From assembly GCA_963733655.1 (NCBI GenBank), contig CAVTEX010000005.1:187834-251833 (forward strand): a stretch of DNA of 64,000 nucleotides, written 5' to 3'. Source of the DNA: an uncultured Thermoleophilaceae bacterium. Lineage in GTDB: Bacteria; Actinomycetota; Thermoleophilia; Solirubrobacterales; Thermoleophilaceae. The number at the start of each line of letters is the position of its first letter. The first letter of the stretch is position 1. Below are positions 1 through 41,831 of this stretch, piece by piece. A program made the position numbers and the translations under genes. The notes under the pieces are model-generated. The model was not told where the DNA came from and searched no databases. It worked only from the letters and a program-made list of their open reading frames with translations.

Positions 1-1686
1 CTCGGCCTCGGCTCCGAAGCGCTCGGCAGCGCGCTCGTTGACGAGCGCGGCGACCGCTTCGCACGCCTCCTTCACGGCACCGCCGGTGAACCAGGTCTGC
101 CGCGACGCGGAAGAGGACCCGGCGTTGCCAACGGCGGTGTCGGCGGGAAGCACGACCACCCGCTCCACACCCAGCACCTCGCGGGCGATCTGCTCCTGAA
201 CGGTCACCGAGCCCTGGCCGACCTCGCAGGCCGCGGTGTGGACCTCCACGAGCGGCTGGCCGGCCGCCAGCGAAAGCCGGACACGCGCGGTCGAGTAGTC
301 GTCGAAGCCGCCGGAGAAGCCCACGTTCTTGAAGCCGACGGTGTAGCCGACCCCGCGGCGAATCCCCTCTCCGTGCGTGGTGTTCGAGACTCCGCCGGGC
401 AGCTCCCGGACGTCGAGCTCGTCGCCGGCGGCGGCGGGATGCGGCATCGATTCGAGCTCCCCGAGCAGCCGCGCCACCGGGGCCGGGCCGTCGATCGCCT
501 GGCCGGTGGGGAGCCTGGTGCCCGTCGTCATCGCGTTGCGCCTACGAAGCTCGACCGGGTCGATCCCCGCGGCAGCCGCGAGCTTGTCCATCTGGGCCTC
601 GTAGGCGAAGCAGGTCTGCACCGCCCCGAAGCCGCGCATCGCGCCGCAGGGCGGGTTGTTGGTGTAGACGACGTAGGTGTCGATGTCGGCGTTCGGGCAG
701 CTGTAGGGACCGACGCCGGTGGTGGCGGCGTTGAGGCAGACCGCCATCGAGCTCGAGGCGTAGGCCCCGCCGTCGAGCACGATGTGCGCCTTCACGTACA
801 CGAGCTCACCGTCCCGGCGGGCACCGTGCTCGTACTGCAGGCGCGCCGGATGCCGGTGGACATGGCCGTAGAACGACTCCTCGCGCGAATAGACCATCTT
901 CACCGGCCGCCCGGTGTGCAGCGCGAGCATGCAGGCGTGGATCTGCATCGAGAGGTCCTCGCGCCCACCGAAGGCGCCGCCCACCCCGGCGTTGGTGATC
1001 CTCACCCGCTCAGGCGGCAGCCCTAAGCTGGCTGACACCTGGGCGAGATCCACATGCAGCCACTGGGTGGCCACATAGAGCTCCACGCCGCCGTCCTCGC
1101 CCGGGATCGCCAGGCCGGACTCGGGGCCGAGGAAGGCCTGATCCTGCATGCCGAGCTCGTACTCGCCCTCCACCACCAGCTCGGCGGCCGCGGGCTCCCC
1201 GCGCCGCACGTGGATGTGCCTGAGGACGTTGCCGCCGTCGTGCAGCCGCGGCCCGCCGCCCGCGGCCGCCAGGTCCATGTCCACGAGCGGCTCCAGCGGC
1301 TCGTAGTCGACGTCGACGAGCGCGGCTGCGCGGCGCGCGGTCTCCGGGTGGTCGGCGGCCACGATCGCCACCGGCTCGCCCTGGTAGCGCACCACGTCGA
1401 TCGCGAGGACGGGCTGGTCCGGCAGCTCGAGGCCGTAGGTCTTGCGACCCGGCACGTCCTCGTGGGTCAGGATGGCGCGCACACCGGGCAGCGCGAGCGC
1501 CCGCGCGAACTCGATCGAGCGCACGCGCGCGTATGGGTGTGGGCTGCGCAGGGTGGCCCCCCACAGCATCCCGTCCGCCCACAGGTCCGACGAGTAGGCG
1601 AACTCGCCCTTCACCTTGAGCCTCCCGTCGGGGCGATCCGCGCTCACGCCGATCGCCGGCGGGCGAACCCGGGTGGTGGCGGTCAC
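1..1686 (-). CDS. xanthine dehydrogenase/aldehyde oxidase-family molybdopterin-binding large subunit (N-terminal part only; runs off the window start)
   Basis: Own minus-strand translation from GTG at 1686: VTATTRVRPPAIGVSADRPDGRLKVKGEFAYSSDLWADGMLWGATLRSPHPYARVRSIEF...VPGRKTYGLELPDQPVLAIDVVRYQGEPVAIVAADHPE. This is a typical N-terminus for the family. GTGA overlap with the 2Fe-2S subunit stop. Absent from the ORF track because it has no stop in the window. Confidence 0.85.
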   Translation of the reverse strand, partial: MTATTRVRPPAIGVSADRPDGRLKVKGEFAYSSDLWADGMLWGATLRSPHPYARVRSIEFARALALPGVRAILTHEDVPGRKTYGLELPDQPVLAIDVVRYQGEPVAIVAADHPETARRAAALVDVDYEPLEPLVDMDLAAAGGGPRLHDGGNVLRHIHVRRGEPAAAELVVEGEYELGMQDQAFLGPESGLAIPGEDGGVELYVATQWLHVDLAQVSASLGLPPERVRITNAGVGGAFGGREDLSMQIHACMLALHTGRPVKMVYSREESFYGHVHRHPARLQYEHGARRDGELVYVKAHIVLDGGAYASSSMAVCLNAATTGVGPYSCPNADIDTYVVYTNNPPCGAMRGFGAVQTCFAYEAQMDKLAAAAGIDPVELRRRNAMTTGTRLPTGQAIDGPAPVARLLGELESMPHPAAAGDELDVRELPGGVSNTTHGEGIRRGVGYTVGFKNVGFSGGFDDYSTARVRLSLAAGQPLVEVHTAACEVGQGSVTVQEQIAREVLGVERVVVLPADTAVGNAGSSSASRQTWFTGGAVKEACEAVAALVNERAAERFGAEAE

Positions 1687-2138
1687 GCAATCACCCGCCG
1701 CACCGCTTCCAGGATCTTCTCGTAACCCGTGCACCGGCAGAGGTTGCCCGCCAGCGCCTCGCGGATCTCGGGCTCGCTCGGGGCGGGATTGCGCGCGAGC
1801 AGGTCGTGCGTCGCGACGATCAGGCCGGGCGTGCAGAATCCGCACTGCACCGCGCCCGCCTCGAGGTAGGCCTCCTGGATCGGATGGAGACCGTCGTCCT
1901 CCGCCAAGCCCTCGACCGTGACGATCTCGGCGCCGGCAGCCTGGCCCGCCGCCACGAGGCATGAGCACACCAGTGTCCCGTCCATGTACACCGAGCAGGA
2001 CCCGCATTCACCCTGCTCGCAGGCGTTCTTCGAGCCCGGCAGACCCATCCGCTCACGCAGCACGTAGAGCAGGCTCTCACCCTCCCAGGCGTCGTCGATC
2101 GTGCGTCGCTCGCCGTTCACCGTGCACTCGATCCGCAT
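1683..2138 (-). CDS. (2Fe-2S)-binding small subunit of a xanthine dehydrogenase/CO dehydrogenase-family enzyme
   Basis: 151-aa ORF with both cluster motifs (CEQGECGSCSV and CGFCTPG...CRCTGY). Tightly packed between the other two subunit genes. Confidence 0.95.
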   Translation of the reverse strand: MRIECTVNGERRTIDDAWEGESLLYVLRERMGLPGSKNACEQGECGSCSVYMDGTLVCSCLVAAGQAAGAEIVTVEGLAEDDGLHPIQEAYLEAGAVQCGFCTPGLIVATHDLLARNPAPSEPEIREALAGNLCRCTGYEKILEAVRRVIA

Positions 2139-2141
2139 CTC

Positions 2142-3002
2142 CTATGCGTCCCCCGACATGGCCCAGGCGAGAGTGCGACGGGCGAGCACCGCCAGCGCGT
2201 GCTGGCGGTAGGCGGCGCTGCTTCGGACGTCGTCGATCGGGCGCGCCGCCGACGCCACGAGCTCGCCGAAGCGCTCGAGCGCCGGCTCGCCGAGCGGCTG
2301 CCCGCCCTCCCACGAGTCCGCCTCGCCGAGCATGCCCGCGAGGAACTCCTCGGCCGCGGCCGCCACGAGCGGCGTGGGCCCGGCCGATCCGATGCCCGTG
2401 CCCACGCGGCGGGTGGCCGGATCGATCGAGAGCGCGAACGAACACGCGGCGATCACCATCGCGTTGCGCGTGCCGATCTTCGAGAACTGCTCGCGCCCGC
2501 CCGCCGGGACAACCCGCACGGCCGCGATCAGCTCGTCATGCGCGAGCACGCTCTCCTTCGGCCCCGTGAAGAACTCGCGCACCGCGACGCGCCGAACCCC
2601 GCGCACGGAGGCGAGCTCGACGTCAGCGTGGGCTGCGAGCAGCGGTGGATGCGCGTCGCCCGCCGGCGACGCCGATCCGAGGTTCCCGCCGATCGTGCCG
2701 CGGTTGCGAATCTGGGGCGACCCGACCGTCCGGGAGGCGAGCGCGAGGCCGGGCAGCGGGACGCCGAGCTCCGCAATAACGCGCGTATATGAGACACCGG
2801 CGCCCACGCGCAGCTCCCCGCTCTCCGGCCCCCAGTCGCGCAGCTCGCGCACGCGGGAGAGATCGAGGATCGCCCCCGGCCGCCGCCGGTCGAAGTTCAG
2901 CTCGACCATCACGTCGGTCCCGCCCGCCAGCGGCAGGCTCTCGGGGTGGGCGGCCCTCAGCGCAAGAGCGTCCTCCCAGGTTGTCGGCTGGATGAAATCC
3001 AT
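2142..3002 (-). CDS. FAD-binding medium subunit of a xanthine dehydrogenase-family enzyme
   Basis: Track ORF 2142..3380 trimmed to the ATG at 3002 (MDFIQPTTWEDALALRAAHPESLPLAGGTDVMVELNF...), a CoxM/XdhB-like FAD-binding N-terminus. Residues upstream of it look like off-frame filler. Confidence 0.9.
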   Translation of the reverse strand: MDFIQPTTWEDALALRAAHPESLPLAGGTDVMVELNFDRRRPGAILDLSRVRELRDWGPESGELRVGAGVSYTRVIAELGVPLPGLALASRTVGSPQIRNRGTIGGNLGSASPAGDAHPPLLAAHADVELASVRGVRRVAVREFFTGPKESVLAHDELIAAVRVVPAGGREQFSKIGTRNAMVIAACSFALSIDPATRRVGTGIGSAGPTPLVAAAAEEFLAGMLGEADSWEGGQPLGEPALERFGELVASAARPIDDVRSSAAYRQHALAVLARRTLAWAMSGDA

Positions 3003-3035
3003 CGTCACGGGCTCCGGCTCATAATCGTCCACAGT

Positions 3036-4754
3036 TTGACCGACCGCCGGCACCTGATCGCCGTCGCCAGGGGTGACGAGCCCGCGGACCTCGTGGTCCG
3101 CGGCGCACGCGTGTTCAGCGTCTTCACGCGGGAGTGGCTCGAGGGGGACGTGGCGGTGGCCGGCGGCCGCTTCGCCGGCGTCGGCCAGTACGACGGAGCG
3201 GAGACGGTCGACGCCGGAGGGAGCCTGGCCGTGCCCGGGTTCGTGGACGCCCACGTGCACATCGAATCGTCGATGCTCACGCTCGAGCGCTTCGCCGAGG
3301 TGGTGCTCGCCCGCGGGACCACGACCGTGGTCGCCGATCCACACGAGCTCGCCAACGTGGTGGGCGCCGACGGCGTGCAATGGCTGCTGGACGCTGCGGA
3401 GCGGGTACCGCTGAACCTGTACGTGATGGCGCCGTCGTGCGTGCCCGCGAGCCGTTTCGAATCGCCACGGGGGCCGCTCGAGGTGGACGAGATGGAGGGG
3501 ATCCTGGGCCGTGCGGGGGCACTGGGGGTGGCGGAGATGATGAACTTCCCGGCGGTCATAGCCGGCGAGCCTTCAGTGCTCGGCAGGGTCGCGGCTCGCG
3601 GGGCCACGCACGTGGACGGCCACGCCCCCGGCGTGAGCGGGCTGGCCCTCAACGCCTACCTGGCCGCCGGTATCGCGTCCGATCACGAGGCGACGACTTA
3701 CGAGGAGGCCCTCGAGAAGCGGCGCAAGGGCGCCTGGGTCCTGATCCGCGAGGCCTCGAACGCGCGCAACCTCGAGGCGCTGCTTCCCCTCGTGCGGCGC
3801 TACGGCCCCGAGCGCTGCGCGTTCTGCACGGACGACCGAGAGGCCGATGTGCTGCTCGACGAGGGCCACATCGACGGCATGTGCCGCGCCGCTGTGCGCG
3901 CCGGCCTGGCGGCCGAGGACGCCCTCGTGCTCGCAACCCACAACGCAGCCGCCTGCCACGGACTGCTCGACCTGGGGGCGATCGCCCCGGGCTACCGCGC
4001 CGATTTCGCCCTCCTCTCCGACTTGACGGAGTTCGCACCGTCGCGGGTATTCAAGGATGGCCGGCTCGTGGCCGCGGACGGTGAGGCCCTGCCGATCGCC
4101 GCGCCGGACCTTCCCGACTGGCTGACCGGCACAGTCAGGGTGGGCGAGGTCGCCGCGTCCGATCTCGCCATTCCGGCGAGCGGAGCCCCGATCAGGGTGA
4201 TCGAGCTGGTGCCCGATCAGCTCCTGACCGAGTCACGAGTGGAACCGCCCAGGATCGTGGACGGCCTGGCCGAAGCGGATCCGGACCGCGACCTGGCCAA
4301 GATCGCTGTGTTCGAGCGCCATCACGCGAGCGGGCGAGTGGGGCGCGGGTTTGTCCGCGGCTTCGGCCTGCGCGAGGGCGCGTTCGCCTCCACGGTCTCG
4401 CACGACGCCCACAACGTGATCGTCGTCGGCGCCTCCGACGACGACATGGAGCTGTGCGTTCGCCGGCTCGCCGGGCTCGGCGGCGGCATCGTGGTCGCCC
4501 GCGACGGGGTCGTGCTCGCGGAGCTGGCCCTGCCGCTCGCCGGCCTGATGTCGGACCGGCCGGGCCCCGAGGTGGCTGCCTCGCTGCGCGAGCTGAGCGC
4601 CGCGGCGGGGGCGCTCGGCGTCCGCGTGCGCGCACCGTTCATGGCGCTCAGCTTCCTCGGGCTCTCGGTGATCCCCTCTCTGAAGATCACCGACCGGGGT
4701 CTGGTCGACGTCGACCGCTTCGAGCTGGTCCCGCTGGAGGTCGGCGCGAGCTGA
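3036..4754 (+). CDS. ade: adenine deaminase
   Basis: Track ORF 2946..4754 with LVVRGARVFSV...GGRFAGVG...VPGFVDAHVHIESSML...VVADPHELANV and a conserved C-terminal domain. Start placed at in-frame TTG 3036 (LTDRRHLIAVARGDEPADLVV), just past the divergent FAD-subunit start. The start codon is uncertain. Confidence 0.85.
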   Translation: MTDRRHLIAVARGDEPADLVVRGARVFSVFTREWLEGDVAVAGGRFAGVGQYDGAETVDAGGSLAVPGFVDAHVHIESSMLTLERFAEVVLARGTTTVVADPHELANVVGADGVQWLLDAAERVPLNLYVMAPSCVPASRFESPRGPLEVDEMEGILGRAGALGVAEMMNFPAVIAGEPSVLGRVAARGATHVDGHAPGVSGLALNAYLAAGIASDHEATTYEEALEKRRKGAWVLIREASNARNLEALLPLVRRYGPERCAFCTDDREADVLLDEGHIDGMCRAAVRAGLAAEDALVLATHNAAACHGLLDLGAIAPGYRADFALLSDLTEFAPSRVFKDGRLVAADGEALPIAAPDLPDWLTGTVRVGEVAASDLAIPASGAPIRVIELVPDQLLTESRVEPPRIVDGLAEADPDRDLAKIAVFERHHASGRVGRGFVRGFGLREGAFASTVSHDAHNVIVVGASDDDMELCVRRLAGLGGGIVVARDGVVLAELALPLAGLMSDRPGPEVAASLRELSAAAGALGVRVRAPFMALSFLGLSVIPSLKITDRGLVDVDRFELVPLEVGAS

Positions 4755-27548: not shown

Positions 27549-28139
27549 CTACCTCGTCCAGCGCGGACGCAGCGAAAGCTCTCCGCGCGCGGCGGCTCGG
27601 ATCGTCCGTCGAAGCGCGGCGGCCACGCCCTCGGCGGGCAGGTCCACCTCGACCTCCACCGTCCCGAATTCCTCGTTGGTGAAGCGGACCACGCCGAGGT
27701 CGTCGATCAGCTCGAGCATGGGCCGATTGTCGGAGAGGATGGAGGCGCTGAAGCGGCGCACGCCCTCCTCGCGCGCACGGTCGCTCAGCCGCGCCAGCAG
27801 CGCGCCACCGACGCCGCGCCGCTGCCAGTCGTCGGCCACCGCCACCGCGAACTCCGCCTTGTCGGGCTCGTCCGGAAAGCGAACGAAGCGGGCCACGCCG
27901 ACCCCCATCCCGGTTTGCGGGTCCCGCGCGACCAGCGCCTCGTGGTCGTGATGGTCGACCTGAGTGAGGTAGTCGAGCTCCGCGTCCGACAGCTCGTTGG
28001 TGGGCGCCAGGAAGCGCCGGTAGCGCGACTCCGGACTCAGCCGCCGCAGCCCGGCGGCGAGCTCATCGCGGTCCTCGGCCTCGATGGGACGGATCTGGAT
28101 CTCGGACCCGTCGCTCAACGACACCGGGCCGGCCGTCAC
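27549..28139 (-). CDS. GNAT-family N-acetyltransferase (Pat/protein-acetyltransferase-like domain)
   Basis: C-terminal 196 aa of track ORF 27549..28724 from GTG 28139 (VTAGPVSLSDGSEIQIRPIEAEDRDELAAGLRRLSPESRYRRF...VADDWQRRGVGGALL). GTGA overlap with the folC stop. Confidence 0.8.
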   Translation of the reverse strand: MTAGPVSLSDGSEIQIRPIEAEDRDELAAGLRRLSPESRYRRFLAPTNELSDAELDYLTQVDHHDHEALVARDPQTGMGVGVARFVRFPDEPDKAEFAVAVADDWQRRGVGGALLARLSDRAREEGVRRFSASILSDNRPMLELIDDLGVVRFTNEEFGTVEVEVDLPAEGVAAALRRTIRAAARGELSLRPRWTR

Positions 28140-29382
28140 AGCATCGACGCGCGCGCAGCGGCTTCGTCGCGCACCAGGTCCGCCACCAGGTAGATCGAGC
28201 CCGTGGCGAGGACGCTCCCGTCGCGACCGGCCAGCTCCCGCGCACGCTCGAGAGCCGCGCGTGGCTCCGCCACGGTTTCTGAAGGCGGGCCGGAAAGCTG
28301 CTCCTCGAGCGAGGCCAGGGTCGCGGGCGAGAGTGAGCGGGGGTTGCGCGAGCGGGTGAAGACCACGCGATCGATGTGCGGCAGCAGCACGTCGAGCATT
28401 CCGGCCGCGTCCTTGTCGTCGAGCACGCCGATCACGGCGACGCGCGGCCGGCGCTCGCCGAGCACGTCGTCGAGCGAGGCGGCGAGCGCGAGCGAAGCCC
28501 GACGGGTTGTGAGCGCCGTCGAGCACGGTGAGCGGGCGATCGGCCACGATCTCCAGCCGCCCGGGCACGATCGTCTCCGCCGCAGCTCGCTCGACCGCCC
28601 GGCGATCCAGGGGCCGGTCGAGCATCGCCTCGGCCGCGGCCGCCGCGAGCGCGAAGTTGCCGCGCTGGAAGCGCCCGGCCGCACGCAGGTGCACGGCTCG
28701 GCGTCGCCGTCCGACGCGTACCAACCGCGCGTGGCGCTCGGCCGACGACGCGTTCGGCCACCGCGAGCGACTCGGGGTCGAGGTCGCCGACGACCAGCGT
28801 GGCGTGATCGGTGACCACGTCGAGCTTCTCCTCGGCGATGTCGGTCAAGGTCGGGCCGAGCCAGCGCGTGTGCTCCAGGCTGACCGAGGTGAGCACCTGG
28901 ACCTTCGACGGGATCACGTTGGTGGCGTCGAAGCGGCCACCCAGCCCGGCCTCGATCACGGCCACCTCCACCCCACGCCGGGCGAGCTCGTGGTAGGCCG
29001 CCGCCGTGAGCGCCTCGAACTGGGTCACGTGGTCGTCGGGCTCGGCGTTGCGGTTGACGAGCTCCGCCGCATGAGCGGCTCGCTCCACCGCAGCGGCGAA
29101 ATCGGCCTCGGAGACCGGCTCCTCCCCCACCTCGATTCGCTCCCGGAACGAGGCCAGGTGCGGCGACGTGTAGCTGCCCGTACCCAGCCCGTGGCGCTCG
29201 AGGATCGCCGCGAGGAAACGGACGGTCGACGACTTGCCATTGGAGCCCACCACGTGGACGGAGGCGAAGCGGCGTTGCGGCAGGCCCAGCACGGTCATCA
29301 GCCGGTGCATGCGGTCGAGCCCGAAGCGCATGCCGAACAGCTCCAGGCCGAGCAGGTACTCCTCGGCCTGGCGAAAGGTCAA
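28136..29382 (-). CDS. folC: bifunctional folylpolyglutamate synthase / dihydrofolate synthase, two apparent frameshifts (~28750, ~28505)
   Basis: Three frames join: [25 protein letters not shown]...VVGSNGKSST...LEHTRWLG (ORF 28432..29826); LVRVG...GRFQRGNFALAAAAAEAML...LDGAHNP (ORF 27549..28724); ASLALAASL...VIGVLDDKD...GSIYLVADL (ORF 28136..29656). TTG start overlaps the valS stop (TTGA). Confidence 0.85.
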
Positions 29383-32008
29383 GGCGAGCCCTCCAGGCGC
29401 CGCAGTGCCTCGCGGTACTCGTCGAGCTTGCGGCGCTCCTCGTCCACCACCTCGGGCGGGGCCTTGGCCACGAAGCCCTCGTTGGCGAGCTTGCGCTCGG
29501 CGCGCTGGATCTCGGCGCGGAGCTGCTCGCGCTTCTTGTCGATGCGGCGCAGAGCCTCGTCGGCGTCGAAGGCCTCGGAGGGCAGCACCTGCACCGCCCC
29601 GCCGGGGATCGGGACGCGTGGCAAGCACGTCGCCGTTCTGGGAGGCGTCCACCCACACGAAGCGGGCCAGCCGCGCGAGCTGATCACGCAGTGCGTCGTA
29701 GCCCTCTGCGGCCAGGCGCCCGCGCACCGGTGCGCTTGGCTTGGCGCTCACCTCGTCGCGGTAGCGCCGCAGCGCGGTGACCGCCTCGATCAGGCGGCTC
29801 GACCTCGGCTTCGGCCGGCTCGTCAAAGCGCGAGGGGTCGGCCTCGGGCCAGTCCGCCACCGCCAGCAGGCCGCGCTCGCCCGGCATCAGGCCCCAGATC
29901 TCCTCGGTCACGAAGGGCATCACGGGGTGGAGCAGGCGCAGCGTGCGCTCGAGAGCCCACAGCAGCACCGCCGAGACCTCGGCGTTGTCCTCCTCGTAGA
30001 GACGGGGCTTGGCCAGCTCGAGGTACCAGTCGCACAGCTCCGACCAGAACGCGGCGTAGAGCTCGAGCGTCGCGGCAGAGAAGCGAAAACCGTCGAGCAT
30101 CTCGGTGGCGCGCTCGGTGTGGCGCTCCAGGCGGGAGACGATCCAGCGATCCTCGACACTGCGCCCGGCCCGCGGATCGGGCTCCACGTCGGCTGCGCGC
30201 AGCAGGATCAGGCGCGAGGCGTTCCACAGCTTGTTGGCCAGGTCGCGGCCCTGCTTGACGCGCTCCTCGTTGAAGCGCACGTCCTGCGACGAGGACATCG
30301 CGAGCAGCCCGAAGCGCAGCGCATCCGCGCCGTAGGCCGGGAACTCGCCGCCCTGTTCGAATACCGGCGGTCGCGGCCCGCCGTGGATCAGCTCAGAGGG
30401 GTCGATGCCCGTGCCGAGTGACTTGGACATGCGCCGCCCGTCCGGCGCCTGGATCACCGAGTGGATGTTCACGTCCGAGAACGGGATCTCGCCGGTGAGC
30501 TCGACGCCGAACATGACCATGCGAGCCACCCAGAGGAAGATGATGTCGCGCGCCGTGGAGTTGACGTCCGTGGGATAGAACGCCCGCAGCTGCGGCGTTT
30601 CGGCGGGCCAGCCGAGCGTGGCGAACGGCCACAGTCCCGACGAGAACCAGGTGTCCAGCACGTCGGGGTCGCGCTCCCAGCCCTCTCCCTCCGGCGCGCG
30701 TCTCGGCCACGTGGGTCTCGTCACCGCGGTACCAGACGGGCAGCTGATGCCCCCACCACAGCTGGCGGGAGATGCACCAGGGACGGATGTTCTCGAGCCA
30801 GTTGAGGTAGACGCCGGTCCACGGCTTGCCGGGGTGGAACTCGATCGCCCGTCCTTCACCACCTCGATCGCCGGCGGGGCGAGTTGGTTCATGTCGCAGA
30901 ACCACTGGAGGGAGATGAGCGGCTCGATCCGGCGGCCGGAGCGATGCGAGTGAGGGACGTCGTGCTCGAAGGGCTGCGTCCCGGAGATCAGGCCCTCCGA
31001 ACGGAGGTCGGCGACCACCGCCCGCAGCGCCTCGTCCACCTCCATCCCGCGATAGCGCTCGGGCGCGGAGTCCGTGATGAGTCCGTCCTCCCCGATCACC
31101 GTGACCTCGTCGAGCCCGTGCGAGCGGCCGACCTCGAAGTCCGCCGGGTCGTGGCCGGGGGTGATCTTCAGAGCGCCGGTGCCGAACTCCGGATCCACAT
31201 GGTCGTCGGCGATGATCGGGAGCCGCCGGCCCACGAGCGGCAGGATCGCCGTCTCGCCGATCAGCCGTGAGTAGCGCTCGTCGCCGGGGTTCACCGCGAT
31301 GGCGGTGTCGGCGAGCATCGTCTCCGGGCGGACGGTCGCCACCGTGACCGAGCCCGAGCCCGACTCGAGCGGGTAGTCGAGCATGTAGAGCGTGTCCTCG
31401 ACCGTCCGCTGCTCGACCTCGAGGTCCGAGATCGCGGTGCGCAGGCCGGGATCCCAGTTGACCAGGTAGTTGTCGCGGTAGATCAGGCCCTTCTCGTACA
31501 GGCGGACGAACACGTGCGTCACGGCTCGCACGTACTCGTCGTCCATCGTGAAGCGCTCGTCCTCGTAGTCCAGCGAGGCGCCGAGCGCCTTGAACTGGCT
31601 CACGATCGTGTCTCCATACTCCTCGCGCCAGCGCCAGACGCGGCGGATGAACTCCTCGCGGCCGATCTCCTGCCGGCTCGTGCCCTGGGCCTCGAGCTGC
31701 TTCTCGACCTGGCGCTGGGTCGCGATCCCGGCGTGGTCGGTGCCGAAGATCCACTTGGCGCGCCGGCCGCGCATGCGGGCCACGCGAATTAGGGCGTCCT
31801 GGATCGAGGCGTTGAGCGCATGCCCCATATGGAGGTTGCCGGTCACGTTGGGCGGCGGAACGGCGATCGAGTAGTTCTCGTCGGCGGTGCCCTCCGGCTC
31901 CGGGTCGAAAATGCCCGCCTCCTCCCAGCGCGCAAAGACCCGGCCCTCCACCTCGGCGGGCTCGTAACGGGTGCGCTCCTCGAGCGTCTTCAGACGATCG
32001 TCGGCCAT
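29379..32008 (-). CDS. valS: valine--tRNA ligase, four apparent frameshifts (~30855, ~30703, ~29795, ~29625)
   Basis: [15 protein letters not shown] (HIGH) and MSKSLGT (KMSKS) in ORF 29684..32008. The missing segment [40 protein letters not shown] is in ORF 30393..32018. The C-terminal coiled coil [34 protein letters not shown] is in ORF 29379..29687. Confidence 0.95.
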
Positions 32009-32097
32009 GTCGCGCCAAGTGTGTCAGCCTCGCCGCGGCGCGCTAGTGAACCCCCGGGTTTGGCGCCGGGCGGGGCAGGCGCCCGCATCGGCTTCGG

Positions 32098-32766
32098 TTA
32101 CGCCGGAAGCCCCTCGATGAACTCCACGAAGCGGCGCGGGTCCCGCAGCGGCGGTCCATGGCCGAAGCAGACGAGCTCCGGCTCGAGCGGTGCCAGTTTC
32201 CGCGCCGAGCGCCGGTTCTCCTCCGGGTCGGCGGTGAAGTAGGTCTTGGGCTCGTTGAGGCCGCGGACGCCCGTGACCACGTTGATTGCGTTGAGCACGT
32301 CGCCGATGATCAGCACGCGGTCCGACTCACGCCAGAAGACCACGTGGCCCGGCGAATGGCCCGGGGTCTCGATCACTCGGAACCCGGCCACCTCGTCACC
32401 CTCGCGGAGCACGCGATCGACGTTGCGGCCCGGACCGACCCAGTAGCGCATCGCCAGGCGGTTGAAGGGATGCGGAGCCTGGCTTTCGGCGATCGCCTCG
32501 GGACGCTCCGCCAGCTCCACGTCTCCCCGGCCGACCCAGAACGGGATCCGAAGCTTGCCGCAGACCTCGTCCGATGCGCCCTGATGATCGGGATGCGCAT
32601 GGGTGAGCGCGTGGGCGTTCACGGCTCTGCCCTTCAGCTGGCCGAGGATCCGCCGCCCGGCCCGCCGGGTGGCGGCGTCGATCAGCACGTCCTCGACGAG
32701 GTAGACATTGATGGCGTCCGGAGGAAAACCGCGTAGCTGCCACACCCCGTCGGCCAGCTGCTTCAT
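32098..32766 (-). CDS. MBL-fold metallo-hydrolase
   Basis: 222 aa. LTHAHPDHQG motif, ...TPGHSPGH..., ...GHG. Sits 16 nt downstream of the recombinase-like gene. Confidence 0.9.
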   Translation of the reverse strand: MKQLADGVWQLRGFPPDAINVYLVEDVLIDAATRRAGRRILGQLKGRAVNAHALTHAHPDHQGASDEVCGKLRIPFWVGRGDVELAERPEAIAESQAPHPFNRLAMRYWVGPGRNVDRVLREGDEVAGFRVIETPGHSPGHVVFWRESDRVLIIGDVLNAINVVTGVRGLNEPKTYFTADPEENRRSARKLAPLEPELVCFGHGPPLRDPRRFVEFIEGLPA

Positions 32767-32782
32767 GGGTTGCGACCCTAGA

Positions 32783-34181
32783 TCATCGCTTCGGCCTCCG
32801 GTAGCCCGCGGCCGACTGGACGCTCGAGGGACGCCACTTCTGTCCTCCCCGCAGGGTGGGTACGCCTTCCTCGTTGAGTGCGTCGGCGATGGCCTGGAGG
32901 GTCATCCCCTCGGCCCGCATCTCCGCGATTTGCTCCTTCAGTGGTGGAACGTCCCGGACCGAGGGACGGCTGATCGAGCCCCCCTTCGCGCGTGCGGCCG
33001 CGAGACCCTTGCGCGTCCGCTCGCCGAGCCGCTGGTGCTCCCAGCCGCTCACCGAGACGATCACGTTGGCCGCCTTGCGTCCGGCCGGCTCGGCGGTGTC
33101 GATCCGATCCTGCAGCGAGACGAACCGCCCCCCGATTCGGCCGATCGACCTCAGGGCGCTGCCGAGTCCCGTCACCACCGGACTCAACTGCGGCAACGAC
33201 CACACGATCACGCACGAGGCCTCACCCGATTCCACGCGCTGCAGCGTGTGAGCCAAGCCCGGGGGGTTGGCCCGTGCGAGACGTTGCCCTTCGGCTTCGG
33301 TGACCATCTCAACCAACTGCCAGCCCCGCTCCTCGCATGCGGCGGAAATGGCCTCGCATCTGCTGCCAGACGTCCGGCCGCCCGCCCAGTCCGGAGCTCA
33401 CGTAGCCGATCGCCTTCACCATCTCCCGCTGCTTCGGCTTCTCGGGTACCCGGCGGCGTGGGTGACCGCTGGTCACCTGAGCCCGCCGTCGAACGGGCGC
33501 CGGAACCTCGGCGCCTCGATGTAGCGAGCGGTTCGTCTTGCCCTTGCTCAGCGGCGTCGCCCGGCCTCGAAGCGCTCCCACGAGCGCTGATCCCAGCAGC
33601 AGCGGCAGCACCAGCGCCAGCATCAGCTCCGGTTCAACCTCCTCCTCCTGTCCAGGCGCGGCCGCATCGGCGATCGAGGCACCAACGCCGGCCGGCTGCC
33701 GGCTGCGCTTGATCTCGACGGTCGGCCTGTCCGGCTTGCTGTTTGTGCTCCGGACCGGCTGCAACGCGGGCCGGCGAGCGGCGGCCATGAGACGACCCGC
33801 GGTCTGACGTCCGACGATCCCGTCGGCCGCGACGCCCGCGGCCCGCTGGAATCGAATGACGCCGGCCTCGGTGAGAGGCCCGTACAGGCCGTCGATGGGT
33901 CCCGGGCGCTTGCCGAGCCGGGTCAGCAGCCGTTGAAGCGCGGCCACGCGCCGTTTCTCGACCCCGACTTTTCTCGGCGCGGCCGCCGGGATCCAGTAGC
34001 CGGCGCCACGCGCGAGCGGCGGGATCGCATCCCGCGTGATCGGGGCGAGGGCGGTGCGGAACTCGGCTGTGTCGCCGGCAGTGGCCGCGAAGCCGCTGGC
34101 CGGCAGCAGAGTCAGGACCAGCACGGCCATCAGGGCCACCAGTCCGGCCCGGGCGAGGCCCAAGCCATATTTCCTTTGCAT
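32783..34181 (-). CDS. signal/anchor + PG_binding_1 domain + TM helix + catalytically degenerate serine-recombinase (resolvase)-like domain with C-terminal HTH; one apparent frameshift ~33375
   Basis: ORF 33309..34181 carries a hydrophobic N-terminus, VAALQRLLTRLGKRPGPIDGLYGPLTEAGVIRFQRAAGVAADGIVGRQTAGRL and TM LMLALVLPLLLGSALVGAL. It then runs in frame, with no stop, into MVKAIGYVSSG... Continuation EAISAACEERGWQLVEMV...DRIDTAEPAGR...ERTRKGLAAARAKG...MTLQAIADALNEEGVPTLRGGQKW is in ORF 32783..33316. Confidence 0.6.
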
Positions 34182-34252
34182 GGTTACTCCTCATCGAGCG
34201 ATTGGCCCGTGTGCGTCCGGCACACGGGCAGGCGTGGTCGAGCCCGGTGGGG

Positions 34253-36373
34253 CTAGCCAGGCCGCTCGATGACGGCGACGAACGCCGTGGGGCGCCAGGG
34301 CGCCGGCGCGTAACGCAGGCGCCGGCTGTGGCGCAGGGCGGCGAGGGCCGCCAATGAGGCGAGAAGCGCGAAGAGGGTGCTGAAGCCGACGCCGGATCCG
34401 CCGGCGGACGCGCCGCCGGAGCTGGGCGCCGGAGTCGGCGGGCTCTGCGGGCCGCCGGCCGTGGGAGCCGATGATCCCCCGCGGTGCGGCAGGATCTCCG
34501 GCCAGCGTTGCGAACGGATGTGCGGCGTTCGGCGCAGCGAAGGGCGATGCGGGGGCCGTGTCGGGGCTGGCGGTGGCGCCCGAGGGGTTCACGGGATCCG
34601 CGGCGTTCGGGACGCCCGCGGCGGACCTGGGGTCGGCCGGAGCCGTGAGCGGGCCGGGAGCTGCGACGCCCGCTTCACCGGGAGAGGGCGCTGTGCCCAG
34701 GGGCGGAGACCGGCGCCGCCGCGTCGCCGCGCGAAGCCGGAGCTGCACTGCCGCCGGGGCCCTCGCCGCTGGGATCGCCCGTCGAGGGGAGCAATGACGG
34801 AAGCGATTCCGTGGCCGGCGTGAGGATGGTGCCCAGCGGCGGCAGCGCCTGTCCGATGCCGCCCGCGATCGGTGCGACCGACATCGAGAACGGGCGCCAG
34901 GGCTCCGCTGACGGGCTGCAGCACCGGCCCGATGAGACCACCCGTCTGTTGGAGCACGGGGCTGAGCAGCCCGCCGGCGGCGCCCGTCACGGGGGCCAGA
35001 AGATCATCGGCAGTGTCGGCGACCGGCGCCAGCAGGCCGCCCGCCGTGTCGGCCACCGGGGCCAACAGCTCGTCCGGCGCGTGTCGAGCGACCGGCGCGA
35101 GCAGGTCACCGGCCGGTGTCGGCCACCGGCGCCAACAGCTCGCCCGCCGCGTCCGCGACCGGGGCGAGCAGGTCGCCGGCGGTGTCGGCCACCGGCGCCA
35201 ACAGCTCGCCCGCCGCGTCGGCACCGGGGCCAGCAGGTCGCCGGCGGTATCGGCCACCGGCGCCAACAGCTCGTCCGTCGCGTCCGCGACCGGGGTGAGC
35301 AGGTCACCGGCGGTATCGGCCACCGGGGTGAGCAGCTCGTCCGCCGCATCGGCCACCGGGCTGAGCAGCTCGTCCGCCGCATCGGCCACCGGCGCCAGCA
35401 GCTCGTCCGTCGCGTCGGCCACCGGGCTGAGCAGCTCGTCGGTCGCGTCGCTCAGCGGCGCGACCAGGTCGTCCGAGGCATCGGCCGCGGGCGTGAGAAC
35501 GTCGTTTGCGGTCTCGGCAAGAGGAGCGAGGAGGTCGTCAGTCGCGTCGGTCACCGGTCCCAGCGCCTGGTCAGCGACGTCGGTCAGGGGGGTCAGGGTC
35601 TCATCGACCGACTCGGCGACGGGCGTCAGGACCGGGGCGGTGGCCTCGGTGAGCGGCGCCAGCAGCTCGCCGGTGGCCTCCGTTGCCGGGGCGACGAGGT
35701 CTGCGGCCGGCTCCGTCAGCGGAGTCACGACGTCCTCGGCGGTGTTGGCCAGGGGCGCTGTGACGTCATCGGCGGCCTCGGTCGCGGGCACCACGAGCTC
35801 GGTTGCCGTATCGACGAGCGGAGCGACCGGCAGGTCGGGGGTCGCGATTGGGGCCGCGGGGACCTCGGCGGTTTCCTCGGCGATGGCCGCGGGCGGCTCG
35901 TCGCCGGCGCCGGTAACCGGGGTGAGCGCGTCCAGGGCGTCGGCGGCCGTCTCGGTGACCGCGGCCGGTGGGGGAGCGGGCGGCTCAGCTGGCGTGGGCA
36001 GCTCAACGGGCGCTGCCGGCTCAACGGGAGCCGGGGGCTCAACGGGAGTGGGCGGCGCCGGCTCGGCGGTGGGCGTTGGCGGGGCCGGGGCGGCCGGGGC
36101 GGGCGCCGGGGTCGCCGGCGGCGGCGCGGGTGCGGGCGGCTCTGCCGGCGGTGGCGCCGGCAGAGCCTGGGTGGCCTGCTGGACGACCTCCGGGACGACC
36201 CCCACCGGGTCCGGCAGCGAGGGCGTCGACACCCCGGGAAGTTGTGCCGCGGCAGTTGGGGCCCAGGCCGCCAGCGCTGCGCCCGTGACGGCGGCGACGG
36301 CGGCCACCCGTCGGAGGCCGGTCTCCCGGCCGCGGGGTCTGCGGCGAACGATGCTGAGGGCTCCCTGGTTCAT
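34253..36373 (-). CDS. secreted, C-terminally anchored repeat protein: signal peptide, Pro/Ala linker, ~30 acidic 11-residue repeats (PVADxxDELLx), Gly/Pro/Ser region, TM helix and short basic tail; several apparent frameshifts
   Basis: ORF 34589..36373 (MNQGALSIVRRRPRGRETGLRRVAAVAAVTGAALAAWAPTAAAQ..., then repeats). Tail reconstructed from ORFs 34675..34941 and 34191..34748 plus own translation ending ...GGSGVGFSTLFALLASLAALAALRHSRRLRYAPAPWRPTAFVAVIERPG* (stop 34253-34255). Confidence 0.7.
34890..35820 (-). repeat. 33-bp in-frame tandem repeat array (coding the 11-residue repeats)
   Basis: Plus-strand unit about GTCGGCCACCGGCGCCAACAGCTCGTCCGTCGC. It is most regular at 35000-35450 and degenerates toward 35820. 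Local 1-nt indels turn some units into RRASCWRRWPTP-type off-frame copies. Confidence 0.85.
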
Positions 36374-36542
36374 GGTGCCTATCGGTGATCGACTCTCGAC
36401 CTACCCGGACCGGCCCTCGCTCGGGCACGCGTACGCAACTAACTTGAATCAGTTTCCCGCAATTTGCGACTTTTGGGCGCCTCGTAAGCTGTGCAGATAT
36501 ACGCAACTCGTCACCGCCAGCCCGACCTCGATAATCCACGAG

Positions 36543-36903
36543 GTGTCCCCGGCGACCGAGGCCGAGCTGCTCCGAAGGGCGAAGACCCGCCTGGACCGGC
36601 TGGACTTCTATCCCGAGCCCGTGCGCATCGACGGCGTCCGGATACGGGTCACCCCGTGGCTCTTCCGCATCCCCGGCTTTAAACGCTTTCGCGGGTACGC
36701 CACCCGCCAGAACATCTGGCTCAAGCACAGTCCGCCCGGACGAACGTCTGATCGCGCACGAGCTGTGCCACGTCTGGCAGCTCCAGCACCGCCCGCTGCG
36801 AGTCTGGCTCTCGTACGCCCGGCCCTCGACCTTCAGCGCCGACAGGACGGCGTACCGCGCCAACCGCTACGAGATCGAGGCGCGCCGCGCGGCGGACTCG
36901 TGA
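36543..36903 (+). CDS. small HExxH protein (DUF4157-like zinc-metallopeptidase-fold motif), one apparent frameshift ~36729
   Basis: GTG 36543: VSPATEAELLRRAKTRLDRLDFYPEPVRIDGVRIRVTPWLFRIPGFKRFRGYATRQNIWLKH. After a 1-nt slip: VRPDERLIAHELCHVWQLQHRPLRVWLSYARPSTFSADRTAYRANRYEIEARRAADS* (HELCH at 36757-36771). Divergent from the repeat-protein gene. Confidence 0.55.
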
Positions 36904-36912
36904 AACCGCCGC

Positions 36913-38199
<1,287 letters not shown>

Positions 38200-38316
38200 G
38201 GGGTCTCTCCTCGAAGGCCGAGGGTATCAGTGAGGCTTCGCCCAGGTAGATACTCGACCGATGTCCGGCTCCCTGCAAGCGGGCGCTGATTCGCAGACGA
38301 CGATTAGGCTGCCGCC

Positions 38317-39669
38317 ATGCGCAAGGTTCGCCTGCTGCCGGTCGCCGCCGTCGCATTGCTGCTCGTGGGGTGTGTGGGCGAGCGCCCGGAGGACCCGGTC
38401 GTGCTGACCGGCGCCGAGCTGCCCCGGCTGGCCGGCGCCGCGCCGGACAAGGTGATCGCCTTCCGCTGGCTGGGCGACCGCTGGGACCAGGTGCCGGTGC
38501 AGGTCGACGAGCGCGCGCGGGTCGACCTCGCCAAGCCGAAGAACGCGGCGGCGGTGGGCCAGACGTTCGTCACCTACACCGATCCCGCCACCTTCACCGG
38601 CCCCGACCCCAACCCCGGCGTCGACGCAGACGACGAGGTGGTCTTCATGGGCATCGACGGCGCCCTCGAGGCTCCCGCTGGCCAGTCACCACCGGGCGTG
38701 GCCGCCGGGACCGGCACGAAGGTCAGGATCTTCGACCGCGCCGGCGAGCCCACGCCGGCCTGGATCTACCTGTTTCGCCAGACCGGCAACCTCGATCAGG
38801 CGGCCGGGCGGCCATATGTGGACTACGACTTCAACCTGCTCTCGGGGGACTACAAGACCACCTACCGGCTCGGCGCCGGGCCGAATCCGGAGAACTCAAC
38901 CGCGAGCACCGCGTTCTACTCGCACCACTTCTCCGACCGCTGGGTGGACGACTCGCTGCGGATCACTGCGGGCACGGCCACGGGCGTGGACATCCTCGAC
39001 CGCCACAAGAACCTGTTCGCACCCGGCACCTGCGTGCGCACCGAAACCACGTTCTCGAACGGCGCCGGGGCGATGATCGCGAACAAGAGCGGCCCGGTGC
39101 GGGCGATCCGGTCCTACATCGGAGCCAACTCCGGCGTCTACACGCACCGCGAGCACCTGTTCTACGAGCGCCGGCAGGACATCACCACCTTCCTGCGCGT
39201 CCACGCCATCCCCGGAGTGATGGACTTCTTCGACTACTCCCCGGCCGCCTCCGGGATGACCTACCGCCACGACAGCGACTCCCGCTCCTTCCCGGTTGAC
39301 GGCGTGCCTGACTCCCCCACGGCCGGTCCGATCCGTTGGGAGACGATGAACGGCCCCCAGGGCTCGCTCGGGATCGCCCACACCGTGACCTCCGATGTGC
39401 CCGGGCTCACCTCCACCTCCTACTACCTCGACAAGCAGACGCCCGCGGGCGGCGCCGAGACCCAGTGCACCGGCGACGGCTCGGCCTACGGATCAAGCGG
39501 CCCGCGCATCGCCCAGGCGCTCCCCAACACCGATCCCACGATCGGGGCGGCCAACAGCCTGTCGACCACACGCCACCTGTTCTACGGCGCCCCCGGGAAG
39601 GCCGTGGGGCCGGACGAACTGGAACAGGTCACGGTGCCGCTCCAGACGACACAGACGCCCTGGCCCTGA
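38317..39669 (+). CDS. lipoprotein of unknown function
   Basis: 450 aa, intact. Lipobox signal MRKVRLLPVAAVALLLVGC. The remainder has no motif I recognise. Lies between clpX and clpP on the opposite strand. Confidence 0.75.
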   Translation: MRKVRLLPVAAVALLLVGCVGERPEDPVVLTGAELPRLAGAAPDKVIAFRWLGDRWDQVPVQVDERARVDLAKPKNAAAVGQTFVTYTDPATFTGPDPNPGVDADDEVVFMGIDGALEAPAGQSPPGVAAGTGTKVRIFDRAGEPTPAWIYLFRQTGNLDQAAGRPYVDYDFNLLSGDYKTTYRLGAGPNPENSTASTAFYSHHFSDRWVDDSLRITAGTATGVDILDRHKNLFAPGTCVRTETTFSNGAGAMIANKSGPVRAIRSYIGANSGVYTHREHLFYERRQDITTFLRVHAIPGVMDFFDYSPAASGMTYRHDSDSRSFPVDGVPDSPTAGPIRWETMNGPQGSLGIAHTVTSDVPGLTSTSYYLDKQTPAGGAETQCTGDGSAYGSSGPRIAQALPNTDPTIGAANSLSTTRHLFYGAPGKAVGPDELEQVTVPLQTTQTPWP

Positions 39670-40422: not shown

Positions 40423-41831
40423 TCAGGAGCCTGGAGTCCAGATCTCGCCGGAGCTTTGGGCCGCTCCCTCCTCCTCCTTGTCCGGCGTCCAGAGCTTGTC
40501 CCGTGCGGCGGCCTTCTCGGCCGCGATGGGCTTGGCGTGCTCCACCAGCAGGTCCACGGCCTTGCGCATCGCGATGTCCTCGCGCAGCGCCTCGTCGGCC
40601 CCCTGGGAGCGCGCTCGCTTCAGGGCGCGCTTGAGCTGCTTCTCGGACGCGTCGGGGGGAGCGGCGGCTCGCAGCGCCTCGTTGACCTCTTCGTCGGAGA
40701 CCTCGATCCCCTCCGCATCGACGATCGCCGACAGCACCGCCTCGCGCTTGAGGGCCAGCTCGGCGTCGGGCTCCGACTCCGTGGCGAGCTCCTCCTCGGT
40801 CTTTCCGGTCATCTCGAGGTAGCGCGCCGGATCCACGCCCTGCGCCTCGAGCCGGCGTGCGGTCCGGTGCCACATCTCGTGAGCCTTCGAATGGACGAGA
40901 TCGTGGGGCACCTCCACGGTGGCCTGGGCCACCACGGCGTCCACCGCCGCCTCGCGGAACTCGCTCTCGATCGAGCGCTCCTCTGCTTCCGCGAGCCGCT
41001 GCTCGATATCGGAGCGCAGCTCGTCGAGCGAGTCGTAGCCGCCGGCCTGCTCGGCCAGCTCGTCGTCGAGCTCCGGCAGGGCCTTCTCCTTGACCTCCTT
41101 GACGTCCACGTCGAAGACCGCTTCTCGGCCCGCCAGATGCTCGGCCTGGTAGTCGTCGGGGAAGGTCACGGTCACCGCGCGCGACTCGCCCGCGCGAGCG
41201 CCCTGGAGCTGCTCCTCGAAGCCAGGGATCAGCCGGTCCGGAGCCCAGCTCGGCCACGTGCCCCCGCGCCTCGCCGCCGGCGAAAGCCTCGCCGTCGAGA
41301 CGGCCCACGAAGTCCATGACGAGGAAGTCTCCTTCGCCGGCCTCGCGGTCGACGTTCTCGAGCGAGGCGAGGGACTCGCGCACGCGCTCCAGCTCGGCCT
41401 GCACCTCGTTCGGGTCGGGCGACGGCTCGCGGCGCCCGACCTCCACGCCCTTGTACTCGGCCAGGCGCGCCGGGGGCACGATCCCGACCTCGATCGAGAA
41501 GCCGAGCGAGGCGCCCTGCTCGGGCAGGTCGGTGAGATCGATCTTGGGATCGCCGACGGTGGTGATCCCGGCCTCGTGGATCGCCTGCTCGTACCAGCCC
41601 GGGAAGCCCGCGGCGCACCGCCTCGTCGAGCACGGCCTCGCGGCCCACCTGGCGGATCACGACCTGGGCCGGCACCTTGCCCTTTCGAAAGCCGGGCACG
41701 CGCATCTCGCGGCCGAGTTCGGAGGCGGCGGTCTCGAGTTCGCGCTCGAGCGCGGCACTCGGCACCTCGACCTCCAACCGGACACGCGAGTCTCCGAGTT
41801 CCGTGGTCTTCGTGGTCACTGCTGCGGCCAT
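40423..41831 (-). CDS. tig: trigger factor, two apparent frameshifts (~41612, ~41238)
   Basis: N-terminus MAAAVTTKTTELGDSRVRLEVEVP...MRVPGFRKGKVP (ORF 41229..41966 from ATG 41831). PPIase part ...LAEYKGVEVGRREP...DFLVMDFVGRLDGEAFAGGEA (ORF 40385..41479). C-terminal part in ORF 40423..41175. Confidence 0.9.

Follow-up and report, generated by a model that had tools for sequence, protein, structure and literature searches.

The locus examined here raises the question of what is encoded by a gene built largely from a 33-bp repeat, and of whether the changes of reading frame that interrupt it belong to the organism or to the assembly. The gene lies on the minus strand at positions 34253..36373 of a 64,000-nucleotide stretch of contig CAVTEX010000005.1 from an uncultured Thermoleophilaceae bacterium; we refer to this whole stretch as the window. 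The locus is a genuine gene of an undescribed surface-protein family from soil Thermoleophilia-type actinobacteria. According to the reading that we favor and hold to be probable, the product is a genuine anchored surface protein, the repeats of which form a helical rod and which cooperates with the product of a neighboring gene, and the frame changes are assembly errors. The kind of protein is known, repetitive anchored surface proteins having been described before; what sets this one apart is a C-terminal tail that has not been described and an unusual partner.

The longest open reading frame (ORF) of the locus (34589..36373) encodes 594 amino acids. A longer gene is delimited by three-frame translation, by a frame plot of the GC content at third codon positions (GC3), and by a C-terminal end that is common to an intact paralog of the same genome (P0001) and more than 20 relatives. 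This reconstructed gene starts with an ATG at 36373 and stops with a TAG at 34255-34253, and it can be read through only with five or more changes of frame. In the three-frame translation, the conserved C-terminal part is back in the frame of the longest ORF and continues in it down to the stop codon. An Rfam search over 32000-39000 returned no RNA family, and no terminator-like sites were found in 34000-37000.

The encoded protein begins with a Sec-type signal peptide (residues 1-43, 36245..36373), which is apparent in the translation from an Arg-rich n-region, an Ala/Val h-region, and an AAA/QLP cleavage site. The window protein reads ...PTAAA/QLP at this position, and the AxA/QLP junction recurs in P0001, L018, L033, and P0031. 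The signal peptide is followed by a linker of Pro/Ala/Glu-rich composition (35822..36244), which ends in one or two degenerate 11-mers; 46 of the first 181 residues of the protein are prolines. The repeat array itself (34895..35821) comprises 28 phased units of 33 bp, or 11 residues, and leads into a Ser/Pro/Gly/Ala-rich spacer (34421..34894) that probably spans the cell wall. The protein closes with a transmembrane (TM) helix, VGFSTLFALLASLAALAAL (34334..34390), which forms an invariant block in alignment A1 and in 16 relatives and is helical in the structural model of P0001. Behind the helix, a conserved basic tail of 26 residues, RHSRRLRYAPAPWRPTAFVAVIERPG (34256..34333), occupies the exact C terminus and ends in ...AFVAVIERPG, so that the three-frame translation of the window finishes with ...WRPTAFVAVIERPG.

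The array was dissected with Tandem Repeats Finder, a unit table, position frequencies, and composition. When the DNA is cut at each Pro codon, 25 of the 28 units measure 33 bp, and one each measures 32, 34, and 36 bp. Within 35015-35493, Tandem Repeats Finder detected a period of 33 bp and, with better agreement (86% matches), a super-period of 66 bp. Two unit types alternate in the center of the array and form a 22-residue super-unit, with an identity between units at distance two of up to 31/33 bases. Among the 24 units that were scored by position, Pro1 is invariant (24/24), and Leu9/Leu10, Val2, Asp4, and Asp/Glu8 predominate; the central units carry many glycines at positions 7-8. The repeats consist of ∼22% Asp and Glu, and Lys and Arg are absent from 201 repeat residues of the window protein as well as from 376 repeat residues of P0001, the basic residues of the window array being confined to one irregular 12-residue unit.

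The initial annotation, made from the DNA letters alone, had described an unbroken acidic 11-residue array behind a signal peptide and a Pro/Ala linker, which is borne out by the translation and the unit dissection, and its estimate of ∼30 tandem units was fair, given 28 phased units plus one or two degenerate ones upstream. It had also seen near-identical units in the center and divergence toward the N-terminal side. The likeness of the central units, typical of tandem arrays, was confirmed (25-30 of 33 bases agree with the consensus, and neighbors are up to 32/33 identical), but divergence is found on both flanks and not on the N-terminal side alone. The protein had further been called secreted. 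This is correct with respect to the signal peptide, but the protein is not simply secreted: it is membrane-anchored because it ends in a TM helix and a conserved cytoplasmic tail.

The hydrophobic-moment spectrum of the array has one dominant peak at 98 degrees, corresponding to the 11/3 harmonic (1.5, with no other harmonic exceeding 0.46). It is also the dominant one in 12 of 12 relatives, the units of which have quite different sequences, for instance PVVEDLTAPLA, PLVPVVEGLVD, and PILESLTEPLT. Judged from these sequences, the period and the hydrophobic stripe are what selection keeps.

The C-terminal module of the protein is conserved. It consists of a Gly/Ser-rich stretch, the TM helix, a basic cluster, and the motif PxWRxxAF[VI]AV[IL]ERPG at the exact C terminus, all of which the window copy possesses. 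The conserved motif is positioned past the TM helix and the basic cluster, i.e. on the cytoplasmic side. In alignment A1, the end of the window protein in frame 0 shares 71-73% identity with P0001 and L033. A hidden Markov model built from 16 tails detects exactly two copies in this genome, the window copy scoring 89 bits. When a three-sequence profile was run with HMMER against 1.84 billion representative sequences, 173 clusters were retrieved; in 150 of the 150 clusters listed, the match lies at the extreme C terminus and closes in [LIP]ERPG. The passengers of this tail have a signal peptide and repeats that are either acidic or rich in Pro. The last 166 residues of P0001, used as the query of a word-indexed protein search, yielded no match, as low-complexity words swamped the search.

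A variant of the tail was seen as well, in a more distant sister subfamily of the "...PERPG" type. Its members, the metagenome proteins P0083, P0088, P0098, P0120, and P0158 (L042), end in ...RRLRLSCQPWRTAFFVLIPERPG, and their anchor is preceded by a conserved motif that contains Cys, ELSGMAGS.TNNC.AGWL. The one contig of this subfamily that was examined encodes a STAS-domain protein downstream and not a resolvase-like one.

The second tail copy of the genome belongs to the paralog P0001, an intact protein of 785 amino acids that is encoded on contig C17 and has the same architecture. Its signal peptide (ASA/QLP) is followed by a Pro/Glu/Ala linker, acidic 11-residue repeats, a Ser/Pro/Gly spacer, the TM helix, and ...WRQAAFVAVIERPG. 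The C17 cassette (G000:C17:207854-211730; L003, L007, and L027) is an intact two-gene copy, situated 2.2 kb from the contig end and away from clpX.

The search of related genomes that had been suggested with the initial annotation recovered a family in which the 11-residue period is kept and the unit sequences differ. Among 40 relatives searched, members are present in 16 of 24 genomes of the same genus, and two further genera of the order also have them. The best repeat period is 11 or a multiple of it in 13 of the 16 relatives tabulated, and both the number and the sequence of the repeats vary between strains. A DNA search of genomes of the genus found the family in 60 of 80, the conserved part being only the last ∼230 nucleotides (70-81% identity), which comprise the TM helix, the tail, and a short intergenic stretch.

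As in the window, the repeat gene adjoins clpX in G002, G010, G014, and G016. The cassette is accessory, because in G024, a 99% complete genome, clpX and valS are 626 bp apart with no cassette between them. The C17 paralog has a nearer counterpart in the clpX-linked copy of G014 (72% identity) than in the clpX-linked copy of the window itself, which hints at cassette exchange or conversion, as far as such a comparison of sequences can tell. In the window, a small HExxH ORF (36491-36989, plus strand) is located between clpX and the repeat gene. In tblastn, none of seven related loci, the C17 cassette among them, showed a counterpart of this ORF, which probably stands outside the conserved module.

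The partner gene (32783..34181, minus strand) begins with an ATG at 34181, 72 bp after the repeat gene, and is split by a single +1 shift in this assembly. Its product comprises a signal peptide or TM segment, a PG_binding_1 domain, a further TM segment, and a resolvase-like domain, as assigned with Pfam. Of the tail-bearing loci, 24 have 800 nucleotides or more of DNA downstream, and in each of them the tail gene is followed by a resolvase-like gene in the same orientation; the C17 paralog and a Thermoleophilaceae metagenome-assembled genome (MAG) belong to this set. PG_binding_1 is found in 23 of these 24 loci and starts ∼160-420 nucleotides after the stop codon; the exception, L022 from another genus, has a resolvase-like match without PG_binding_1. 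A PG_binding_1 gene also lies downstream on the metagenome contig L044, which carries the distant family member P0052. The genome under study contains five resolvase-like copies, two of which directly follow the two tail genes. The three others (C16:96628-97996, C13:295753-296838, and C13:299327-300139 of G000) are ∼50% identical to that of the window and have no tail gene before them.

The initial annotation could name no repeat family for the array, and the domain searches agree: NCBIfam returned nothing, and the sole Pfam match of the repeats is Apolipoprotein (PF01442), with 26.9 bits for the window ORF and 28.9 bits for P0001, far below the cut-off of 90. With apolipoproteins (ApoA-I/A-IV/E), group 3 late embryogenesis abundant proteins, and α-synuclein, the repeats share the 11-residue unit, the 22-residue super-unit, the boundary proline, and the 98-degree moment. 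They differ from apolipoproteins in the score, in the lack of Lys and Arg, and in being part of a bacterial, exported, membrane-anchored protein. Lipid-binding class A amphipathic helices need basic residues at the interface between the polar and non-polar faces, and assignment of the repeats to the PF01442 class A helix was rejected, Lys and Arg being absent from the repeats of both the window protein and P0001. The likeness to apolipoproteins lies in periodicity and not in homology.

The fibrillar wall-associated proteins of Gram-positive bacteria (M-protein type) are similar in overall layout; with them the protein shares a signal peptide, long helical repeats (predicted here), a Pro/Gly/Ser-rich spacer, a C-terminal hydrophobic segment, a basic tail, and strain-to-strain variation in repeat number and sequence. 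Whereas M-protein-type proteins have a 7-residue heptad period, the family of the window has an 11-residue hendecad, and P0001 lacks an LPXTG motif. Anchoring by LPXTG and sortase was rejected: P0001 has no such motif, and the only candidate in the window is a chance LPSTG, present in one frame and not conserved, which precedes the TM helix by ∼130 codons. Sortase-type cleavage is not expected, because the conserved motif of the family follows the TM helix on the cytoplasmic side, whereas sortase-type signals are located outside. No relevant report of actinobacterial surface repeats with an 11-residue or hendecad period came up in a literature search.

C-terminal sorting signals in general (LPXTG/sortase, PEP-CTERM/exosortase, and GlyGly-CTERM/rhombosortase) have the same three-part C terminus as the tail module, with a hydrophobic helix between a Gly/Ser-rich stretch and a basic cluster, and likewise occur on varied low-complexity passengers. 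These systems have many substrates per genome, whereas there are two tail copies here, and the window tail adds a conserved 20-residue extension (PxWRxxAFVAVIERPG) past the basic cluster. Moreover, no sortase-like gene lies beside the tail gene, the constant neighbor of which encodes a peptidoglycan-binding, resolvase-like membrane protein. A search of NCBIfam with the 70-residue C terminus, at E-values up to 1, returned no family (PEP-CTERM, GlyGly-CTERM, and others).

Searches with the whole protein yielded repeat-level look-alikes only. The best database matches to P0001 are OmpA-family proteins of Zhongshania/Spongiibacteraceae (P0002-P0010), with E-values down to 2e-21 and ∼31% identity over ∼40% of the query. 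They are likewise acidic and rich in Val, Leu, Asp, and Pro, have an 11-residue, Pro-punctuated sub-period (Pro spacing 7+4), and contain a peptidoglycan-binding domain. In contrast to the window family, they are built from units of ∼110 residues, possess an OmpA_C domain, come from Gram-negative bacteria, and lack the ERPG tail. The likeness is probably compositional or convergent, to judge from the alignments, with E-values inflated by the repeats.

Several observations weigh against the favored reading, and they concern the partner, the fold of the repeats, and the integrity of the gene. The interaction of the tail with the partner is one that we infer from gene order alone. With respect to the fold, the helical model comes from single-sequence AlphaFold2, a structure prediction being among the checks proposed with the initial annotation. 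It shows long helices throughout the window array with moderate confidence (predicted local distance difference test, pLDDT, ∼75, range 70-80; predicted template modeling score, pTM, 0.32). For P0001, the same method placed helices at residues 256-605 and left the linker (pLDDT below 50) and the spacer disordered. Foldseek against the Protein Data Bank (PDB) found nothing significant, the best hits being generic long helices (E 1.2), and a sequence search of the PDB gave marginal matches only (best E about 0.01). In addition, some relatives carry two or three prolines per 11 residues, as in PVVDPVDPVVD, which makes a continuous α-helix hardly possible in those proteins and leaves the fold of the family unsettled.

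It is therefore possible, if less probable than a rod, that the repeats are intrinsically disordered, as a polyanionic brush, or adopt a Pro-rich structure other than a helix, which would leave the gene and the location of its product unchanged. The proline in every 11-residue unit and the glycines at positions 7-8 of the central units would suit such a structure, as would the Pro-rich units of those relatives, the limited model confidence, and the lack of a significant Foldseek match. However, pure disorder would not need the 11/3 periodicity that is conserved across 12 divergent arrays. The helices predicted by AlphaFold2 extend over the full array in the window protein as well as in P0001, and the sub-threshold Apolipoprotein matches likewise speak for a helix.

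With respect to the integrity of the gene, all frame changes lie in 34465-35227. There are at least five of them, four of five being +1. The initial annotation had attributed off-frame units in the center of the array to single-base indels, and two such units are indeed present in this sequence. A unit of 32 bp (35196..35227) is one base short (GTGGCC to GTGCC) and moves the reading from frame 0 to frame 2, its sister unit 66 bp away having the full 33 bp. A unit of 34 bp with one extra G (35096..35129; ACCGCC to ACCGGCC) brings the reading back to frame 0, so that the frame is regained ∼98 nucleotides after the 32-bp unit and the two array indels compensate each other. The irregular 36-bp unit, PVARHAPDELLA (35060..35095), is the sole unit with basic residues; compared with its neighbors, it looks like a consensus unit with three extra single bases.

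Beyond those already noticed, there are three additional frame changes, all downstream of the array. These +1 shifts in the spacer, located by three-frame translation and GC3, fall at 34880-34893, 34677-34700, and 34465-34480 (about 34885, 34690, and 34470). Past the array, a stop codon at 34675 closes frame 1 and another at 34589 closes frame 0, which leaves 0>1>2>0 as the required path. The GC3 profile agrees with it, pointing to frame 1 around 34915-34870 and to frame 2 around 34645-34600, with frame 0 taking over at 34465. The sole homology support for a spacer frame comes from relative L019, which matches the segment in frame 1 (E=5e-10); other homology-based assignments in the spacer mostly failed, the spacer being too diverged.

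The density of these changes adds to the points on the other side. At least five shifts within 760 bp (eight counting those of the 36-bp unit) are ∼10 times denser than the 0.3-0.8 per kb found elsewhere, and rpoB and rpoC (7.6 kb) carry no shifts. The patch is thus unusual even for this assembly, being either a poorly polished patch around the repeat or a real pseudogene, and the intact paralog would allow decay of the window copy. Neither an exact look-up of the window ClpX for a second assembly of the same strain nor a search of Joint Genome Institute (JGI) metagenomes with a gapped DNA pattern spanning one shift site gave a match.

Taken with the condition of other genes, the frame changes are most likely consensus errors of a long-read metagenome assembly and not an on/off switch, as far as the sequence can tell. 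The assembly comprises 4.14 Mb in 18 contigs with a marker completeness of 65%, whereas genomes of similar size from the same genus reach 92-99%; low completeness at a normal genome size is the pattern expected from broken genes and not from missing DNA. The window genes valS, folC, and tig, which we compared with five syntenic relatives, are each spread over three frames by two shifts. The relatives read all three in one frame, except for valS of G016, which is split near its C terminus. Elsewhere in the genome, uvrA contains two shifts, secA one, and ileS one; all of these are essential genes. The bias is the same as in the repeat gene, 10 of the 12 shifts counted in other genes being +1 insertions. 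The repeat gene has a GC content of 77% and two to three times as many G/C runs of at least 4 bases as its neighbors.

The shifts in other genes were located at 28139-32008, 40426-41831, and ∼42080 of the window and on contigs C3, C5, and C7; one M14 gene has a single shift. They often occur in pairs 200-370 bp apart, and this close pairing together with the +1 bias suggests patchy consensus quality. Orthologs of the repeat gene in other few-contig MAGs (L033 at 1459-4279, L035, and L038) are also split in or beside their arrays. Their breaks are at different positions, as expected if long-read errors concentrate in GC-rich repeats.

Real single-base indels would instead mean that the clpX-linked copy is a true pseudogene and that the intact C17 paralog carries the function. 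The clustering of the shifts, the presence of the paralog, and the 99% complete relative that dispenses with the cassette at the clpX locus are all compatible with such decay, which we nevertheless consider unlikely. There are no nonsense substitutions, the stop codons arising through shifts alone, and the GC3 signal is retained in each local frame. The TM helix and the tail are intact, with every conserved motif residue present. Furthermore, the two array indels cancel out after 98 nucleotides, and the +1 bias matches that of indels in essential genes, where real indels are impossible. On the favored reading, the organism probably makes an intact protein of ∼700 residues.

A phase-variable contingency gene, in which slippage in the array toggles translation as the initial annotation had considered, is highly improbable. 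The two array indels are of opposite sign and lie within the most homogeneous part of the array, but slippage by whole units of 33 bp leaves the frame unchanged. Tracts of mono- to octanucleotides with 4 or more copies are absent, and the longest homopolymer (C6 at 35592) does not coincide with a shift site. Of the five shifts, three fall in unique spacer DNA. Essential genes are broken alike, and the long-read MAG relatives L033, L035, and L038 are broken at other positions, as errors would give. The case shows that long-read MAG indels in GC-rich repeats can mimic phase variation.

Returning to the favored reading of an intact, anchored surface protein, the N terminus would face the exterior and the tail the cytoplasm. 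A long polyanionic rod or fiber would be built by the repeats, as a single chain or a coiled coil; most likely it is an amphipathic helix, kinked at its prolines, in which one turn takes 3.67 residues. The rod would be kept clear of the membrane by the spacer, and the C-terminal TM helix would anchor the protein. The repeat protein would act together with the wall-binding partner encoded downstream, and its tail may dock on the cytoplasmic domain of this partner. The array would evolve by gain, loss, and homogenization of units, and such changes would keep the frame because the unit is 33 bp long.

A more far-reaching proposal is that the conserved ending, made up of the TM helix, the basic cluster, and the ERPG motif, is a new type of cytoplasm-facing docking peptide that couples the polyanionic surface fiber to the partner, that the two-gene cassette is a so far undescribed trans-envelope device of the Thermoleophilia, and that the 11/3 repeat, with as many as three prolines in a unit, may have an undescribed fold. 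We regard this as speculative and rather unlikely. If true, the device could, for example, relay the state of the surface or wall to the DNA.

To our knowledge, the Thermoleophilia, although abundant among soil actinobacteria, are almost unstudied, and we know of no envelope proteins described from them. The family reported here is defined by its C-terminal module, found in 173 representative clusters, by a passenger prone to turnover, and by a constant partner gene. The passenger retains only the 11-residue period, the acidity, and the 11/3 stripe, whereas the sequence of the units turns over completely. The repeat gene and its partner provide a concrete two-protein system for testing.

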